A stretch of 40,110 nt of DNA from NCBI GenBank assembly GCA_964236955.1, contig CAXSGP010000039.1, positions 1 to 40,110 on the forward strand, given 5' to 3'. The position numbers were made by a program, and so were the translations under genes. Source of the DNA: an uncultured Oligoflexus sp. (GTDB lineage: Bacteria > Bdellovibrionota_B > Oligoflexia > Oligoflexales > Oligoflexaceae). The notes below the pieces were generated by a model. That model was given only the letters and a program-made list of their open reading frames with translations. It had not been told where the DNA came from and did not search any database. Shown piece by piece: positions 56 through 32,696 of this stretch (position 1 is the first letter of the stretch; each line of letters begins with the position of its first letter).

Positions 56-1950
56 GTGCGCCACGAGGCGCGCACTTGTCAGCGGGAGATAGACCCGTCG
101 GGAAAGTGGCGACCCACCACACCCGTATATAGGTTTGGAGCCATGGAGGTGACGATATGGTTTAAGCGTAACCAATGAGAGATACGAAGCCGCAATCCGC
201 AAGGATGAAGCGATTGAGCCTCGACATAAAGCATCCGGAGTGGCTGCCAGGCTTGAAAACCTGATGCCGCTACATCGCAATTACCGACATGGGCATGGAG
301 ATTGTGGCACTCCCGGGGTCATAGAGCGTGGCGTAGTATCACAGGCAAGTGCGTGAACGTGGGATATCTCGTGGCCTCTTCAGGACGAAGTACTGGCAAA
401 CAAGTCTAAACGCGAGAATGCCAGGATGGGTTCTACACGAGAAGTCAGATGGGGCATATTACTCCGAGTATGGGAAAGCCATATACATGGGGAAGGCCTC
501 TAGGTTGAATCGCCCTCAAAGAGGAAACGTTATGGGGCCAACAGAGCACCAATTCTCGACGAAAACGAAATTAGAGAGGATAACTTGGTTGTCCAGACGC
601 GATCCCATAAAGAAGTTTGATTGCCTCATGCATCTCTTCAATATGGAATCGCTTACGGCATGTTACCACGAGTTGGACGGGAGAAAGGCTGTCGGTAGCG
701 ATCGTGTGAGCAAGGAGGACTATGGACAAGCGTTAAGTGAGAACATCGAAAGGCTAGTGCCTAGAATGAAAGAGATGGCCTATCGACCGGGTCCTGTACG
801 AGAAGTACTGATACCAAAGGAAGGTCAGGCCGGATCTTATCGCCCTCTTGGAATAGCTAATTTCGAGGACAAAATGGTGCAAAAGATGACATCGAAGATA
901 CTTGAGAGCATTTATGAGCCGATATTTATGGGCTGTTCTTATGGATTCAGACCTGGACGAAGCTGCCATGATGCGATACGAGATCTTAGTAATTATCTTT
1001 ATCGTCATGAAGTTGAATCGATAATTGATGTGGACTTAGCAAATTTCTTCGGGACCATCCGTCCGATGGTGGTAGATGAAATCTTGCGGAAGAAAGTCGG
1101 CGATAGCCGATTCCTACGATACATCCAGCGACTTTTCAAAGCTGGAGTATTGAAAGATGGTGAGCTAACAATGAGCGATGAAGGTGTGCCTCAGGGTTCG
1201 CCCGCAAGTCCCATTATCGCTAATATCGTTGCGCACGAAGTACTAGATGTATGGTTCGATAAAATCGTCAAAGCCCACTGTCGTGGCCGCGTTGAGATAT
1301 TTCGATACTGTGATGATCTGGTTATCTGCTGCCAGTATGCGACGGACGCATTAAGAGTGCATAAATCACTTGGTCTGCGACTGAAGAAATATGGATTGAA
1401 ATTGAATGAAGAAAAGACACGTCTGATCCGCTTCTCCAAGGGGAATATGAAAAGAGGCGAGGCACAGGAGAGTTTCGATTTTCTTGGCTTCACTTTCTAC
1501 CTGGGTAAATCGCGCAAAGGAAGCATCATTCCTAAGCACAAAACCAGTTGTAAACGCCTTAGGAGCAAGTTAAAGCGAGTCAAAGAATGGGTCCGGGATC
1601 ATCGCAGTAAAATGCGACTCCCTGAACTATGGGCGATATTCTGCTCAAAACTTAGGGGGCACGTCGCCTACTATGGGGTATCGTTCAATCAAGAAAGCGT
1701 GGGAAACTTTATCAAAGAATCGATTCGTATTGTCTTCAAATGGTTGAATCGCCGTGGAGGAAGGAAACGAATTTCCTGGGATAAATTCCAGCTGTTTCTA
1801 AACCGAAATCCACCGCCAGCAAATATAGTCCATCACAAACTTTTCACGATACAATCAAGCCAATGATTCAATCTTAAGCCCGTTGCCTTAATAGGGCACG
1901 GCGGGTTTGAACGGGGGGTGCGTTTAGGAGAACTAGCGCATCTACCCTCT
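56..1950 (+). mobile_element. Group II intron (ribozyme plus RT/maturase ORF), endonuclease-less, probably bacterial class E-like
   Basis: 5' GUGCG at 56. EBS1 UGAAAA (254-259) sits in a CAGG/CCUG-closed loop and is complementary to the 5' exon TTTTCA (50-55). Domain V has the AGC triad (1877-1879) and an AC bulge. Domain VI has a bulged A in CUACCC. Both boundaries are confirmed by reconstitution of the IS ATG. Confidence 0.95.
532..1866 (+). CDS. ltrA: Group II intron reverse transcriptase/maturase
   Basis: RT motifs RPLGI, SYGFRPGRS, GVPQGS, RYCDD and FDFLGF, then an X/thumb domain, with no HNH. The frame is open from 349, but ATG 532 follows a GAGGA RBS at 521-525. Confidence 0.93.
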   Translation: MGPTEHQFSTKTKLERITWLSRRDPIKKFDCLMHLFNMESLTACYHELDGRKAVGSDRVSKEDYGQALSENIERLVPRMKEMAYRPGPVREVLIPKEGQAGSYRPLGIANFEDKMVQKMTSKILESIYEPIFMGCSYGFRPGRSCHDAIRDLSNYLYRHEVESIIDVDLANFFGTIRPMVVDEILRKKVGDSRFLRYIQRLFKAGVLKDGELTMSDEGVPQGSPASPIIANIVAHEVLDVWFDKIVKAHCRGRVEIFRYCDDLVICCQYATDALRVHKSLGLRLKKYGLKLNEEKTRLIRFSKGNMKRGEAQESFDFLGFTFYLGKSRKGSIIPKHKTSCKRLRSKLKRVKEWVRDHRSKMRLPELWAIFCSKLRGHVAYYGVSFNQESVGNFIKESIRIVFKWLNRRGGRKRISWDKFQLFLNRNPPPANIVHHKLFTIQSSQ

Positions 1951-3387: not shown

Positions 3388-4206
3388 TCACATCTGGTCA
3401 GCATTTCTCGAATTATCCGTCCAAGGAAACCATTCAGGAATCTTTCCCGATATCAGAAGAATTCCCAGGATGACAAATGGAATACTCAAGAGCTGCCCCA
3501 TATTCAGGAGCATATTGCTTTCGAACGAAACTTGGTTTTCTTTCGTGAATTCGATTAGAATTCTGCTCAGAAATATCCACGAGAGCATTAAACCTATCAG
3601 TTGCCCTCTGGCCACACTTGATCTTTTGAAATAGAATCGATAGAGAATACCGGTCAGCACGAAATAACTTATCGCTTCGTAAAGCATGGATGGATGCCTA
3701 GGAATGTTATCATGATTTTAAGTGAAAATAATTGCCCAAGGAAGATCTGATGGATGCCCAAGAATTTCGGAGTTGAAAAAGTTTCCTATTCTTATGCAAC
3801 CTGCTGTGAAAGCTACTCCGATGGAAAGTCTGTCAGCGAGCCACAGATAACTCAGGTCCTGATGTTTCCTATGATAGATCCATACGGCAAGCAACACTCC
3901 TATGGCTCCTCCATGACTTGCCAATCCACCTTGCCAAACAAATAGTATGCTCAGAGGATTCTGGAGATACTCTAGAGGAGCATAGAACAGACAATGCCCC
4001 AATCGGGCACCGATTATCGTCCCGATAACAATATGCGTAAGAAGCGAAGAAAGATCCTCGGTCGATCGACCTTCTTTTTGAAATATTCTCTGTGTTATTG
4101 AATAGCCAACCAAAAAGCCTAGGGCAAACATCAGCCCATACCATCGTGGGCCAAACGAGCCGATTTTAAAGATCTCCTTTTGAAAATCCCAAACAAAGTG
4201 ATTCAT
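3388..4206 (-). pseudogene. lgt: Prolipoprotein diacylglyceryl transferase with an in-frame TAA at 3718-3720
   Basis: Lgt motifs RWYGL, GARLGHCLFY, GGLASHGG, RIGNFFNSE and PRHPSMLYEA. Both halves are in the same frame: WAIIFT*NHDNIPRHPSMLYEA. Confidence 0.88.
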
Positions 4207-4243: not shown

Positions 4244-4657
4244 TTAATAAGCGATAAAGAGACTAGGTAGTACAATTATCGCGGTAACAACTTTGAGGAC
4301 AAAATCTTTGGGTAGACGTGAATGTCTCAGCCCCAAATGGTTCAAGGTCGCCTTAAGCATTTTGGTCGCTCCGTAGATTTTCGAAAAATCCATATCGCCT
4401 AAGTGGGCTTTATCTTCTCGAAGAAAAAGCGACCCCTTCTCTATGGTTTCTGGAATCTGTTGAATCTCAAGTCTGAGGTCATTAAGCCTTTTTTCATTCA
4501 AGCGGGCGGAAATCCACTCCTCGATTTCTTCCTTTTGATGAGAAGTCATCTTAATGGATGCCGATGGAATGAACTCAAACGACGCTCGATCTATAGTTCC
4601 GACTTCTTTGCGCCGGATTCGGAGTTCGAATTTCAGAATCGTTCGCAGCAGGACCAA
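4244..4657 (-). CDS. Hypothetical protein, possibly 5'-truncated, with a C-terminal hydrophobic segment
   Basis: Open frame with protein-like composition, co-oriented with lgt. Its 5' end overlaps the integrase remnant on the other strand, so the start is doubtful. Confidence 0.35.
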   Translation of the reverse strand: MVLLRTILKFELRIRRKEVGTIDRASFEFIPSASIKMTSHQKEEIEEWISARLNEKRLNDLRLEIQQIPETIEKGSLFLREDKAHLGDMDFSKIYGATKMLKATLNHLGLRHSRLPKDFVLKVVTAIIVLPSLFIAY

Positions 4658-5172
4658 CGAACTTAATTGGTAAGGCCGCTATCGAAAGAGAAAAAAATAC
4701 TTTCATCGCGTCAATAAATGATCGGCACAAGCCGGTAGCGTTCCTTCACGTCCAAGCGGCGGAAAAAGCGAACATAAAGAACAAGCAGGTATCGAATCTT
4801 CTCGGCACTCCCGATGACGATCCGAAGAGTGGCCCTTACTTCGCTTGCTGCCTTTCCATAGAGCTTGGAAAGATGATTGCCGAGGCGATTAAGAATGGCG
4901 AGCACTTGCGCCCTAAAGGTTTTACCTTATATTCGGTTCGCAATTCGATTCTAAAATTGCCCGATGACGTCTCCAACGTGAAGTTTGATCTTTGGAAAAC
5001 TCACGATTTTCGACGCGCTCATATCACTCTTGCCGCTCTTGCCTGGGGAAGTTTCGGCGACGTCGCGAAAGCTCATGGTCAAGCTTCAGAGATGACAGCG
5101 CGAAGATATTTTCAATGGGGATTGGCCATGAAGAGAAACGAAGAGACAGTCGAGTTTGTACTAAACCTCTAG
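4597..5172 (+). pseudogene. Tyrosine recombinase/integrase catalytic domain, N-terminally truncated
   Basis: The frame of ORF 4873..5172 stays open back to TAG 4594-4596. It contains GFGVRISE (box I Arg), PKSG, HDFRR, HGQ and TARRY (catalytic Tyr), with no start codon before box I. Confidence 0.8.
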
Positions 5173-5175
5173 TCG

Positions 5176-6630
5176 TTATCTTACTTTCACCATTTTTCTC
5201 CCAGTTCGAGCTACACATACACCGTTTCTGATGATGAACGCTTCAACCCAGTGGGTCCCACGAAAACTCGTGCTTTCCCAACGGATAGTTGGAGCGTTCT
5301 TCTCTCCATCTATGAAATCTCCCCGAAGTTCATTGACGCTCGCTGCTTCCTGCCCGCTATTGACAACTTGCCATTTAACGTCGAAAGTCCCAGGTACGTT
5401 CGTTGATACTCTGAATTGAATGTGGGTCTTTTTGCCAATTGGACGGTCAGTAAGGGCGCCGATATTTTTATGGCTATATTTTCCAGGGTGAAGCGTCGCG
5501 GAAATAGCCGCTTTGTACTGCGTAGCTATCGGCCAAAGGGGGGCTTGACAATGATGCGTTGACGCTAAGGCAGGCACCAAAGACAACGGATTCGCCGGTA
5601 AACTTTTTTGCAGACGTTCCGTAAGAACTTCCGCCTTCCTCACGATACCTAATCCCATCATCTGCTCTAGCATTATCTTGGCGCCGAACAAGTCTTTCGC
5701 GGCGAACATTGCGGTAAAGTCAGTTTTCGCTTTCTCTAGCCATAGGAAGATGTCCTTACGTCTTTCGGGGTACTGATTCCACTTGTCTGCGAAATTTTCG
5801 CCCTCATCGGCAGGGTTTTGTACGATATATTTGCCGTCTTTTACCTGAATGAAAACCTCCATTCCATTCAGTATGCCAAGTAACGATGGCTGGAGATCGT
5901 CTTGATTTTGATAGGCCCAAGCGGCCAGCGTCGTGATAATAATTGACACCGGGCGTCGCTCGCACTCGTTGGCAAAGAATACATCCCTATGTCTCTTTAA
6001 AATCTGCACAACTCGTTGAAGGGGAGTTTTTACTTGCCAATCGGGAAGTTCGGCTACTTCCACGCTAATGGATTTGGCAAACGCCGCTCTTTTTTCTAGG
6101 AGCACTATTCTCATGCGATCTTTAAACCAGTCAGCATATTTAATCGGATTGCTGTATTGCCAGTGTCGAAGTTCCTTGTCCGTCAGCGAGATTCCTGTGG
6201 GCAAATTTTCTTCGTTAGGTATTGCTGGAAGAACGTCCATGTGCAACTGATCTGTGAAATTTATTCGCCAGCAACGACGACTTTCAACAACCTTCCCTTT
6301 GAGATCATCGTCAGATTTTAATCGATCACCAACTCTCTTTTTAAGTTCGGCCTGAGTGATAGACGTTTTCTGGATGTCAAGCTCGCAAACCAAATCGATA
6401 TCGTACTCGTCCTTATCGCTCAAAGGTTTTACTACCGTACCCAATCGAAACGAACCTTGAGGATATATTTTTAAAGAGTTCGTAGTCAGCTTCGATTCTT
6501 CATCAGACAAGTGCTCTGCCATTTGAAGATATTTTAACTTTACGTCTTCGTGGAGTTCATCGGGGATGTCAAGAGCTTCGGCAACGGATTTCAAAAGACT
6601 CTCGATATCGGAACGAGCTGTTCTAAACAT
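5176..6630 (-). CDS. CBASS cGAS/DncV-like nucleotidyltransferase (CD-NTase) with a C-terminal AGS-C domain
   Basis: QGSFRLGT...YDIDL...DVLP NTase core, followed by LKRHRD, SIIITTLAA and ENFADKW. The C-terminal KWQVVNSG..A..LRGDF..WEST.F.G.HWVEAF matches AGS-C. Confidence 0.92.
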   Translation of the reverse strand: MFRTARSDIESLLKSVAEALDIPDELHEDVKLKYLQMAEHLSDEESKLTTNSLKIYPQGSFRLGTVVKPLSDKDEYDIDLVCELDIQKTSITQAELKKRVGDRLKSDDDLKGKVVESRRCWRINFTDQLHMDVLPAIPNEENLPTGISLTDKELRHWQYSNPIKYADWFKDRMRIVLLEKRAAFAKSISVEVAELPDWQVKTPLQRVVQILKRHRDVFFANECERRPVSIIITTLAAWAYQNQDDLQPSLLGILNGMEVFIQVKDGKYIVQNPADEGENFADKWNQYPERRKDIFLWLEKAKTDFTAMFAAKDLFGAKIMLEQMMGLGIVRKAEVLTERLQKSLPANPLSLVPALASTHHCQAPLWPIATQYKAAISATLHPGKYSHKNIGALTDRPIGKKTHIQFRVSTNVPGTFDVKWQVVNSGQEAASVNELRGDFIDGEKNAPTIRWESTSFRGTHWVEAFIIRNGVCVARTGRKMVKVR

Positions 6631-6636
6631 ATTTTC

Positions 6637-7590
6637 TCAACTATGTATCGGTGTATAGATGCTTGCGCGATGGCCGCAGAATTTTGCTTTGAAAGTCGGT
6701 GCGAAATTCCTGCTGTGAAAAGCACCTTTGGCTAACAAATCATCGGTTTTTGAGATGCCATCAAGTGTAAAAGTTCCATGCGCGACCTTCGGATCGAGTC
6801 GTTCAAATCTCTCTTCGCCAAGGAAAAACTTCGACTGGTTTGCAGCTCCTCGACTTTGACCTCGTAAAATCACGCTTACGCCCTCTTCTTTCCAATGCCA
6901 CTTTCCGCCACGAGTTAGAGAACTCGCTCTTTCGGAAATTTCATCAGAAGTTCCTAAACTGCAAATTGATATTTTATCGAGCGGAACCAATAAAGTCCCT
7001 ATGGCTTCGACTAATGCAACCATCGACGGGTTGTTAGCCCATACGCCCCCATCGACGAGGCGTGCCTTATCAACTTCAGTGCAACTCGGAAAATAAGAAG
7101 GGGCGGAACTTGTCGCCAATGCTGCCTTCCAAATCGGAACTCTATAATCTCGTGCTAGTCGCTCATGGTGAGGTGTACGAAATATATAAACGTCGTCATC
7201 GGTCAGTGAATAGGAGGGGATTACGACACGTTTTTGAAGATCTGCAATACGTTTATCGCCAAAGCATTCCTTTAGAGCATCTGAAAGCGGTTCAGAGGAA
7301 AATTTATTACCAAAATATCCTTTGAATGAACTCTTGCGCCGCTTAAATATCTTTGGACCGTTATTCACGTAAAAATTTACTATTTCTCGTGGTCTGATGC
7401 CGTTCGCGAGAGCGAGCGCAATGATTCCTCCTGTCGAAGTCCCTGCTATGAGATCGAAATGATCACTAACATTGATTTTGAGGTCTTCTTCTAGGTTGGC
7501 GAGGATCGCGGCTGACATGAGACCTTTGATCCCGCCCCCGTCAAGAGACAGAATTTGAAACTTCGGAGTTGAGTTTTCCAAGATAAGCAC
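6637..7590 (-). CDS. CBASS patatin-like phospholipase effector (CapV-like)
   Basis: LSLDGGGIKG, GTSTG and DGGVWANNP motifs; ends 6 bp upstream of the CD-NTase. Confidence 0.92.
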   Translation of the reverse strand: MLILENSTPKFQILSLDGGGIKGLMSAAILANLEEDLKINVSDHFDLIAGTSTGGIIALALANGIRPREIVNFYVNNGPKIFKRRKSSFKGYFGNKFSSEPLSDALKECFGDKRIADLQKRVVIPSYSLTDDDVYIFRTPHHERLARDYRVPIWKAALATSSAPSYFPSCTEVDKARLVDGGVWANNPSMVALVEAIGTLLVPLDKISICSLGTSDEISERASSLTRGGKWHWKEEGVSVILRGQSRGAANQSKFFLGEERFERLDPKVAHGTFTLDGISKTDDLLAKGAFHSRNFAPTFKAKFCGHRASIYTPIHS

Positions 7591-7670: not shown

Positions 7671-8039
7671 TTAAAGGGCCGGTTGAAACTTAAAGATGCG
7701 CTTGTTAAAACCGACCATACGACGGCAATAATCGTTGATCCAAAACAGGTCCTTTTGCTCAAGCGAGTCACTTTCTACCCGCATGCCAATCTCAACTGCG
7801 TTCTCTACAGTTGAAAGCCACCCACCGAGGAAGTCTCGCCAGTGCGGAGTTCCTGACTTAGCGTCGTCTTCGAAAACGATCTTGTAACGTCGTGATGATG
7901 AGTTTGTGTTGAGGTCTTGGTTTGCTATTCCATTTACCATTTCGACCCTCAAAAAGTCCCGAAAGCTTTTCACACCAAAGTGTTCAAACGAAAAAATCAA
8001 ATTGGTAACGCTACTCAAAATCTGGCTACCATTCCGCAA
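7671..8039 (-). CDS. Hypothetical protein
   Basis: 122-aa ORF between the tRNA terminator and CBASS; no recognised motif and the start is uncertain. Confidence 0.35.
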   Translation of the reverse strand: MRNGSQILSSVTNLIFSFEHFGVKSFRDFLRVEMVNGIANQDLNTNSSSRRYKIVFEDDAKSGTPHWRDFLGGWLSTVENAVEIGMRVESDSLEQKDLFWINDYCRRMVGFNKRIFKFQPAL

Positions 8040-8050
8040 ATTCCAGACAC

Positions 8051-8077
8051 AAAAAAAGGAACCTAAGTTCCTTTTTT
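8051..8077. terminator. Intrinsic (bidirectional-type) terminator after tRNA-Leu
   Basis: AAAAAAA-GGAAC-CTAA-GTTCC-TTTTTT, 10 bp past the tRNA discriminator. Confidence 0.8.
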
Positions 8078-8086
8078 AGTAGAAAG

Positions 8087-8438
8087 TACCTCGCGCCAGA
8101 CTCGAACTGGCACACCTTGCGGCAATGGATTTTGACGCTTTGCGGACTATATCATCACCCTACTACCGTTTCCGATATGAGGGGCCGGGCGCTTTTTCAC
8201 TGAGGCATTACTCCCAGCTAATTCCTGTAGTTTAAGCCATCTCGCGACAGCACAGGTAGTCTCTGAACCTTCCGCATCTGCGGCTTGGCTGCTGATTGTT
8301 ACGTCAATAACTTCCCAGCAATTCACCCGATTTCATCATCTCAAATTGCTCTGAGAGTGGACTCGTTGTTTTTTTCTGCGTCTCTTGCAAGACCTTCAGA
8401 CACTTTATCCATCGTGTCTACCATTCCACCAGCGAGGC
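8087..8438 (-). tRNA. tRNA-Leu(CAA), intron-containing; exon 1 is 8438-8407 and exon 2 is 8135-8087
   Basis: The joined exons fold as acceptor GCCUCGC/GCGAGGU, D arm GUGGAAUGGUAGACAC, anticodon arm AUGGA-UUCAAAA-UCCAU, long variable arm, T arm GCCAG-UUCGAGU-CUGGC and A73. CCA is not encoded. Confidence 0.95.
8136..8406 (-). ncRNA. Group I self-splicing intron (271 nt, no homing endonuclease, with P7.1/P7.2; IA-like)
   Basis: Core elements P GAAUUGCUGGGAA, Q AAUCAGCAG, R GUUCAGAGACUA and S GAUAUAGUCC; P3 UCGGGU/GCCCGG. IGS GUCCA (8362-8358) pairs with exon UGGAU, giving U·G at the splice site. Terminal G at 8136. Confidence 0.95.
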
Positions 8439-8632
8439 ATTCTTATGTTTAAATCGATAACTTTTGCCCCTGGGGAGCATCGGTTAGCAACTAAAAACCA
8501 AAAGCCATGTTTTCCTAATATCACCAGGCATCTTAAGACTGAAAATCCAAATTGGAAAAAGCGTCCTAAGGGTATCCAGCAAATGAGTCTGAAAGTCCTG
8601 GACTGACTCGATTTTTCGCGGGGACTCGGCCC

Positions 8633-8670
8633 TTTTGAATCCATCGTGCCTAGTCTTCCACCTTCGAGGC
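8633..8670 (-). repeat. Degenerate intron-less copy of the tRNA-Leu(CAA) 5' half through the anticodon loop
   Basis: GCCTCGAAGGTGGAAGACTAGGCACGATGGATTCAAAA versus the spliced tRNA GCCTCGCTGGTGGAATGGTAGACACGATGGATTCAAAA: 32/38 identical and ungapped. Confidence 0.85.
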
Positions 8671-8891
8671 CTTGGACCGGAAACCCAAGCGCCCTGCTCG
8701 GATTAGGTAATTTCCGAGAGGGATAAATATTGCGGATGGTGATCCGGAAGTAAAGAGATAATTTTCCCTATTTCCATTTTTTTTGTATTAGCCAAAACGA
8801 CATCTAAACGGGTCTTCTCCCGCCTTATGCTTATTTTTCCGTGGAAACTGTCGATACGAAGAGACTGAATCTGTTTTCCTGAGGAGACCCC

Positions 8892-32203: not shown

Positions 32204-32367
32204 TTACCGTCACTCAGTCAGCGTTGAGGTCTCATCAGCGTCGCGCGCGAGTCTAACCCGGAAGGTCCTAGGTCAGTGCAGGCAAGCAAGAGAGCCTTAA
32301 AGCTAAGGAGTGCAGCACGGAACAGGTAAATTAAGACACAAAGGAGCAGCCGCAAGCAGAAAATCAC

Positions 32368-32469
32368 TTCGCACTTCCTACGCTGGTATGAACCAGTTCA
32401 GGTACTAGAGTTGGATGACTGAGCTCCTGGGCAGATTCATCCTCTCAGCCTTGCGGCACCCCTGGCGAA
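32368..32469 (-). promoter_or_regulatory. TPP riboswitch
   Basis: GGGGUGCC-GCAA-GGCUGAGA...ACCUGAACUGGUUCAUACCAGCGUAGGAAG upstream of thiC. Confidence 0.96.
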
Positions 32470-32696
32470 ACTGGGAGAGTCTTAGCACATTTTGGATAAG
32501 AATGAAATCCTTGAATCCTGGGAATACTGAGGCGAAACTGCCGACGAGAGAGACTGGGTATTCTCTTGCTTCAGGAATGGCGGATGCCGATCCAGATTCT
32601 TTAAAAGTTGTTGTTCCGGAATAAAAAGACCCAAAGTCGGTCGAGCGCGAAGCCAGGCCTGATTTGAGTCTTTCTTTTCATGCGGCCAAGACCGTA

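Follow-up and report, generated by a model that had tools for sequence, protein, structure and literature searches.

The window, the whole stretch of 40,110 nucleotides that was analysed, contains an intron-bearing tRNA-Leu(CAA) gene on the minus strand (8438..8087) and, upstream of it, a second copy of the 5′ half of the same tRNA. Read in the direction of transcription, the locus is organized as follows:

8671..8754, minus strand: native 41-nt leader (8711..8671) and conserved promoter-like block, located upstream of the orphan half
8633..8670, minus strand: orphaned, decaying 5′ half of the tRNA (positions 1–38), the putative host side of an attL-type junction, assigned from its 32/38 match to the spliced gene and from the alignment with genomes G004 and G010
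8439..8632, minus strand: spacer of 194 nt and putative foreign origin, absent in G004 and G010, read as a remnant attP arm (P′ arm)
8407..8438, minus strand: 5′ exon of tRNA-Leu(CAA), positions 1–32, 100% identical to positions 1–32 of the intron-less tRNA of G004
8136..8406, minus strand: predicted group I intron of 271 nt between loop positions 32 and 33, from Rfam family RF00028, with boundaries placed by comparison with G004
8087..8135, minus strand: 3′ exon of tRNA-Leu(CAA), from position 33 to the discriminator; exon and terminator are 98% identical to G004
8050..8079, minus strand: palindromic hairpin followed by a T run, a likely tRNA terminator, kept in G004, G009, and L104

ARAGORN called no tRNA in the window, and the intron-bearing gene was recognised from its exons and from the match to the Rfam group I intron family (RF00028, 8399..8138, minus strand), which scores 48.5 bits, just below the gathering score of 50, with an E-value of 4.3e-11. 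Read against the intron-less gene of G004, the intron is preceded by a U at the 5′ splice site and has a G at its 3′ end. Its 271 nt contain no endonuclease reading frame, and eight related intron copies, complete or partial, were found. The gene is the only tRNA-Leu(CAA) found in the window's assembly (G000), which is 86% complete. The promoter-like block is formed by a −35-like hexamer (8754..8749) and a −10-like hexamer (8731..8726), both read by eye and separated by a 17-nt gap, and is conserved in G000, G004, G009, G010, G001, L102, and L104. A scan for consensus terminators and promoters called neither the hairpin nor this block.

The 38-nt fragment (8670..8633) aligns without gaps to positions 1–38 of the spliced tRNA, assembled from the 5′ exon (8438..8407) and the first six nucleotides of the 3′ exon from 8135, with 32 of the 38 bases identical. 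The mismatches are located at tRNA positions 7, 8, 16, 17, 18, and 22, and the alignment confirms that they affect U8 and the D-loop GG, as the first-pass annotation of this DNA had reported. The splice junction is crossed uninterrupted, so the fragment has no intron, and the similarity ends after position 38, the final base of the 7-nt anticodon loop, beyond which lies non-tRNA DNA. When all 38-mers on both strands of the window were scanned without gaps, the fragment scored 32/38 and the genuine 5′ exon 33/38, and the remaining window reached a maximum of 21/38 (four sites) followed by 20/38 (21 sites). The description of an ungapped, intron-less copy that ends with the anticodon loop thus stands well clear of the background. 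A repeat search also recovered the pair of fragment and 5′ exon, with a start-to-start spacing of 232. The fragment is positioned on the upstream side of the intron-bearing gene, 194 nt from it and about 497 nt from the 3′ exon, and the latter distance comprises the spacer, the new 5′ exon, and the intron.

Truncated, not called by ARAGORN, and substituted at the invariant positions U8 and the D-loop GG, the fragment has the properties of a tRNA pseudogene. A whole pseudogene with its 3′ half hidden in the spacer was rejected, as the alignments were not significant. When the 3′ exon and trailer were aligned locally with the spacer, 396 of 2000 shuffles scored as high, and under four scoring schemes 38, 222, 26, and 97 of 500 shuffles did so. 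Therefore, the fragment was treated as a half.

The genus was sampled with 14 species genomes, of which 11 match the region; no match was found in G003, G011, and G012, which are 86, 82, and 72% complete, respectively. The order of MetH, orf118, PilZ, and the tRNA is syntenic across the genus. In G004, ARAGORN identified an intron-less tRNA-Leu(CAA), positions 1–38 of which fall exactly on 8670..8633. It is preceded by the same promoter-like block and by a leader that is likewise 41 nt long, and its upstream flank is 75% identical to the flank of the fragment over 224 nt. Intron-less alleles contiguous with position 8670 had been predicted in the first-pass annotation, and G004 provides one. 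The pattern named there as contradictory, an intron-less tRNA at the position of 8438 preceded by the same upstream fragment, was not seen. In G010 and G001, the intron-bearing gene is at the native position, with neither spacer nor scar. Because the genes of G004, G010, and G001 occupy exactly the position of the fragment, we read the fragment as the front half of the chromosome's own intron-less tRNA-Leu(CAA), a remnant still at its native position.

The preservation of the orphan half differs among the relatives. G009 is 92% identical to the window across the gene and lacks about 200 nt, including most of the fragment. In the metagenome contig L102, the orphan half is recognisable in its D-arm part only, and in L104 in its acceptor part only. 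The spacers of G009, L102, L103, and L104 are all shorter than that of the window, and nothing larger is located between the two copies in any relative. Since the fragment is mostly lost in G009 and fragmentary in L102 and L104, it appears to be under no selection and, judged from these sequences, is a decaying half without function. It is very unlikely that the fragment serves as a working part of the leader, such as a tRNA-like processing or regulatory signal, or that it is a chance or slippage duplicate. Its location between the promoter-like block and the tRNA makes it probable that the fragment is transcribed. However, U8 and the D-loop GG are substituted, and G009, L102, and L104 retain the tRNA with the fragment deleted or fragmentary. 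A duplicate arising by chance is opposed by the 32/38 match, which is far beyond chance, and by the comparison with relatives, according to which the spacer does not repeat the native leader.

The last 20–65 nt of the spacer are common to G009, contig C118 of the window's assembly, L102, L103, and L104. The spacer contains one 13-nt direct repeat (8536-8548 and 8586-8598, identical in 11 of 13 positions). The 194-nt spacer resembles the arm of none of the other elements. No homology was detected between it and the spacer of genome G002 described below (327 of 500 shuffles scored as high), and a motif common to C118 and G002 is borderline (47 of 500 shuffles).

In G002, the same break is present together with an element. 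The native promoter and leader are followed by tRNA positions 1–38, 139 nt of unrelated DNA, and a complete tRNA-Leu(CAA) with a differing acceptor and anticodon stem. A tyrosine integrase of 404 amino acids starts 62 nt beyond the complete tRNA and is followed by IS66 genes. The integrase contains the tyrosine-recombinase motifs and matches phrog_1 'integrase' with an E-value of 2.6e-10; its match to PF00589 reaches only 18.6 bits, which is below the cut-off. A separate contig of G002 carries tRNA positions 14–85 with the native terminator, and the acceptor strand of this piece fits the orphan half. ARAGORN called no tRNA in the 14–85 fragment. The orphan half and the displaced 3′ fragment share an exact repeat of 25 nt, and the tRNA and terminator of G006 match the displaced fragment and its terminator at 91% identity. 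G002 is an independent event at the same break as that of the window. An integrase-bearing element had been predicted for some strains in the first-pass annotation, and G002 carries one at this break, but not between the two 5′ halves, which are 139 nt apart.

The break also occurs in other bacteria. A pattern of tRNA positions 17–38 followed by any base but T, with one genome taken per species, matched 17 loci, the record titles of which name Colwellia, Shewanella, Thiothrix, Marinomonas, Bdellovibrionales, Bacteriovoracaceae, Tenacibaculum, and other hosts. At 13 of the 17 loci, a complete tRNA-Leu(CAA) follows the orphan half on the same strand after 91–868 nt; the distance is 91–243 nt in 11 of these 13, and 348 and 868 nt in the other two. 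The remaining four loci comprise one with the tRNA on the opposite strand, one true tRNA, one contig end, and one with no tRNA within 3 kb and an integrase directly at the junction. Integrases scoring above the Pfam PF00589 cut-off adjoin the junction in L046, L052, and L040.

The complete chromosome of G095 (L046) displays the full arrangement: tRNA positions 1–38 are followed by a spacer of 105 nt and a complete tRNA, which an integrase (PF00589, 44.4 bits) adjoins. The displaced tRNA positions 8–85 are found about 50 kb downstream, and their acceptor strand pairs with the orphan half. The block shared by the two parts is 31 nt long, compared with 25 nt in G002, and spans the D arm to the loop in both. 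G096 (L049) has the same layout, with a displaced 3′ fragment that begins at A31, 8.2 kb downstream, and therefore has a shared core of 8 bp; a single repeated motif flanks its reconstructed attP on both sides. Thus, displaced 3′ fragments were located 8–50 kb from the junction (G095 and G096), and G097 has a similar 3′ fragment 56 kb away. The element body lies downstream of the complete tRNA in G002, G095, and G096. No phage genes were seen in these islands. The junction integrases of L040, L046, L052, and G002 have no likeness detectable by BLASTP, so a single element family is not supported.

We consider it likely that the locus is the attL remnant of an island that split a tRNA gene without rebuilding it and supplied a tRNA copy of its own. 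An element with a tyrosine integrase would have recombined with the native intron-less gene through a core ending at the last base of the anticodon loop. The attP of this element would have lacked the rest of the tRNA, unlike that of classical tRNA-targeting islands, and neither junction would have rebuilt the gene because attP carried no matching 3′ part. Instead, a whole tRNA-Leu(CAA) would have been part of the element, just within its left end and preceded by one attP arm, to which the 194-nt spacer corresponds. The position of the replacement tRNA just behind one attP arm would account for the short and fairly constant spacers. The replacement copy, here with a group I intron at 32/33, would then have taken over as the sole tRNA-Leu(CAA) found, and we infer that the native promoter still drives its transcription, with the transcript passing through orphan half and spacer. 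The element origin of this copy is suggested by the 13 of 17 parallel loci, and the window locus presumably went through the same process as the loci of the G002 type. What can be observed is that attB lies inside the tRNA gene and that the junction does not rebuild it in the window, G002, G095, and G096, and that the window retains the attL-type junction, the spacer, and the replacement gene, with no intact element.

The proposal of an att-type scar, with the ancestral 5′ half displaced in the anticodon loop, had been made in the first-pass annotation and is supported by the position of the G004 gene and by the recurrence of the break. Its idea that the element supplied a replacement also agrees with the data, but the replacement is a whole tRNA-Leu(CAA) rather than a new 5′ half alone. 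A different arrangement can be envisaged, in which an element with an attP carrying only the 5′ half (positions 1–38) was inserted between the two copies, the gene was rebuilt at the right junction, and the insert was later deleted down to 194 nt. The final structure would be identical to that observed, and islands bounded by a 5′ tDNA fragment are on record (159 of 3919 in Table 1 of the Islander article, PMC4383910). Nevertheless, a short spacer with a complete tRNA is the intact state in G002, G095, G096, and 13 of 17 loci, the island lies downstream of the complete tRNA where it was located, and no relative has a larger insert between the copies. We therefore regard a former insert between the copies as improbable.

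As the uninterrupted orphan half indicates, the native gene was intron-less at the time of the split. It could be asked whether the intron itself caused the break, by one-sided homing or break repair from an ectopic intron-bearing copy, with synthesis extending into the donor upstream and a non-homologous join after position 38. The break is only 6 nt from the intron site, and contig C118 has another intron-bearing copy, which is fragmentary and preceded by the same 20 nt. However, the intron contains no endonuclease gene, and the same break is found with intron-less replacement tRNAs and integrases in G002, L046, and 12 further loci. Since the break occurs with intron-less replacement tRNAs, the intron is unnecessary to explain it, and homing or repair has a very low probability.

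Under the preferred reading of an island that brought its own tRNA, the intron could have arrived with the element. In favour of such delivery, the last 20–65 nt of the spacer accompany the intron-bearing gene in G009, L102, L103, and L104, including L103, although its PilZ is only 53% identical, and the spacer end also occurs with two broken copies on C118 of the same assembly. Furthermore, the neighbouring genes and the introns group the loci differently. The tree of orf118 and PilZ has a single starred fork, which pairs G000 with L102 (97/89), whereas the intron tree has a split of four versus five (91/89, not starred) that places G000 and L102 in different groups. The orf118 and PilZ tree does not separate one scar event from several. 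Against delivery, the intron of G010 and G001 occupies the native position and no scar is present there; recombination between the two 5′ halves could erase a scar.

The 8-bp core of G096 includes the intron site at 32/33. The intron splits this core, so the intron-bearing gene should no longer be a target. A broader idea is that tRNA-Leu-splitting elements serve as vehicles for endonuclease-free group I introns and that the intron then confers immunity to anticodon-loop integrases, which we regard as unlikely but conceivable. The intron would ride in the replacement tRNA of the element and enter the chromosomal locus when the element integrates. Recombination between the two 5′ halves, together with a second event between the replacement tRNA and the displaced 3′ part, could then leave the intron natively placed.

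Contig C118 carries two more broken pieces of the intron-bearing tRNA-Leu(CAA) (C118:10253-11263, minus strand, L014 and L022). The first consists of the 3′ part of the intron, a 3′ exon 100% identical to that of the window (51/51), and the terminator. The second, located 485 nt further, contains the spacer end, a 5′ exon with three changes, and an intron without its 3′ end, and abuts a repeat that is also present on C36 and C14. The terminator also occurs by itself at C118:5761-5794. In addition, a repeat of about 125 nt at C118:1314-1436 recurs with 80–98% identity on more than 50 other G000 contigs, often at contig ends.

On the downstream side of the tRNA, the window contains a broken relative of the G002 integrase:

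4528..5139, plus strand: broken tyrosine integrase gene, assigned by homology to the G002 integrase, with its C-terminal catalytic part readable and its N-terminal half missing

The broken gene is 34% identical to residues 184–371 of the G002 integrase (E-value of 7e-16). Three stops (one TGA, one TAG, and one TAA) are located near its start, and the catalytic motifs are readable. It lies 2949 nt (about 2.9 kb) from the tRNA, and the two genes are oriented towards each other; the G002 integrase, in contrast, is co-directional with its tRNA. Members of the G002 integrase family were detected in 4 of the 95 genomes representing the order, always near a tRNA-Leu gene, at distances of 62, 306, 474, and 2949 nt, the last belonging to the broken copy of the window. 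In G013, a homologue of the G002 integrase is located 306 nt from a tRNA-Leu(UAA) gene, which it faces (C212; L028, 2565-2893, minus strand). In this tRNA, a group I intron follows the first anticodon base, which is the classical site, and no orphan half is present within 868 nt upstream of it.

The genes orf122, a patatin-like gene, and a CD-NTase gene separate the broken integrase from the tRNA. The CD-NTase gene (SMODS and AGS_C, 484 amino acids) adjoins the gene of the patatin-like phospholipase (317 amino acids) at 5176-7590 on the minus strand, and from their predicted products the two are a CBASS-type defence pair just downstream of the tRNA. The pair was not found downstream of the tRNA in relatives, and none of the genes located there in G009, G010, and G005 is present in the window. 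The only window gene below the tRNA that was found downstream of the tRNA in relatives is orf122, with a 68% match in G004 and partial matches in G006 and G009. G004, G009, and G006 share with the window the terminator and about 60 nt beyond the tRNA. Since relatives have this post-tRNA segment, the element body is missing from the place expected under the model, which has to assume that it was lost. A displaced 3′ fragment (attR) was found neither in the window nor in the 86%-complete assembly. Most of the element body was probably lost later, for example by recombination between the tRNA of the element and the displaced 3′ fragment. Alternatively, the downstream 3.5-kb stretch with the CBASS genes and the broken integrase may be a remnant of the element.

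About 30 nt beyond the terminator, ten bases (8026-8035, minus strand) equal tRNA positions 12–21, and the same stretch is present in G004, G009, G006, L103, and L104. As a candidate for an old attR remnant, this post-terminator stretch was rejected as weak, with 35, 136, and 242 of 1000 shuffles scoring as high in G000, G004, and G006, respectively. G018 has a stronger tRNA-like stretch 87–126 nt beyond its tRNA (0 of 1000 shuffles).

The mechanism proposed here is already known, as it has been published for actinobacteriophages (Guerrero-Bustamante and Hatfull, mBio 2024, PMC10865867). In the tRNA-dependent lysogeny described in that article, a tyrosine integrase uses an attB inside a tRNA gene with cores of 8–17 bp, the host tRNA is not reconstructed, and the phage provides a tRNA with the same isotype. 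Phage Gaia, for example, targets tRNA-Leu-CAA with an 8-bp core (PMC10865867). The loci described here resemble this account in the split tRNA that is not rebuilt, and the core of G096 equals that of Gaia in size (8 bp). They differ from it in that the elements are islands, the hosts according to record titles include Gammaproteobacteria and others, and the shared blocks of G002 and G095 are longer, at 25 and 31 nt. The replacement tRNA is positioned 91–243 nt from the junction in 11 of 13 loci. Moreover, the window holds a scar only, and its replacement gene has a group I intron.

In the Islander model, the part of the tRNA that is lost on insertion is present in attP, and the gene is whole again after integration (Hudson, Lau and Williams 2015, PMC4383910). 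The same article counts 3760 islands with a 3′ fragment among 3919 and places the island between fragment and gene. The integration proposed here shares with these islands a tyrosine integrase, of which the window has a broken homologue 2.9 kb from the tRNA, a crossover in the anticodon loop, and a tRNA fragment that marks the island end. In contrast to the islands as described there, the fragment of the window is 5′, the gene is not restored, and the distance from fragment to gene is only 194 nt, which is below the 2-kb length filter of the Islander pipeline (PMC4383910). A classical tRNA-restoring island was considered for the window and rejected, given the 194 nt between fragment and gene and a junction after position 38 that is not tRNA.

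The Williams 2020 preprint counts 21 types of tRNA group I introns, four classical and 17 added; the classical types are those of Leu(UAA), after loop position 3, Arg, fMet, and Ile2. Like the introns described there, that of the window is short, endonuclease-free, located in the anticodon loop, preceded by U, and terminated by G. Compared with those four types only, it is distinct in its location in tRNA-Leu(CAA) after loop position 1 (32/33).

The locus adds a decayed example from another lineage, relatives that display intact, split, and scarred states of one locus, and a replacement gene with a group I intron. The 13 of 17 loci, spread over diverse bacteria and the genus of the window, suggest that elements which break a tRNA gene and bring its replacement also occur beyond the actinobacteriophages. 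Such sites are probably under-counted, because tRNA finders miss them, as do island finders built to look for a reconstituted gene. In addition, the locus points to a specific path along which a group I intron without a homing endonuclease could pass from one tRNA gene to another, and the notion that an anticodon-loop intron may protect its gene from further integration is testable.

Other features of the window lie outside the tRNA locus. The lgt gene at 3388-4206 (minus strand) is split into two reading frames of 99 and 162 amino acids. It is a second paralogue, as another lgt is located on contig C53, and therefore looks like a broken extra copy. The start of the contig carries a group II intron (89-1866, plus strand; Rfam RF02005, 99.9 bits), followed by a reverse transcriptase frame of 505 amino acids. 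A TPP riboswitch with a score of 58.4 bits is located at 32357-32473 on the minus strand.
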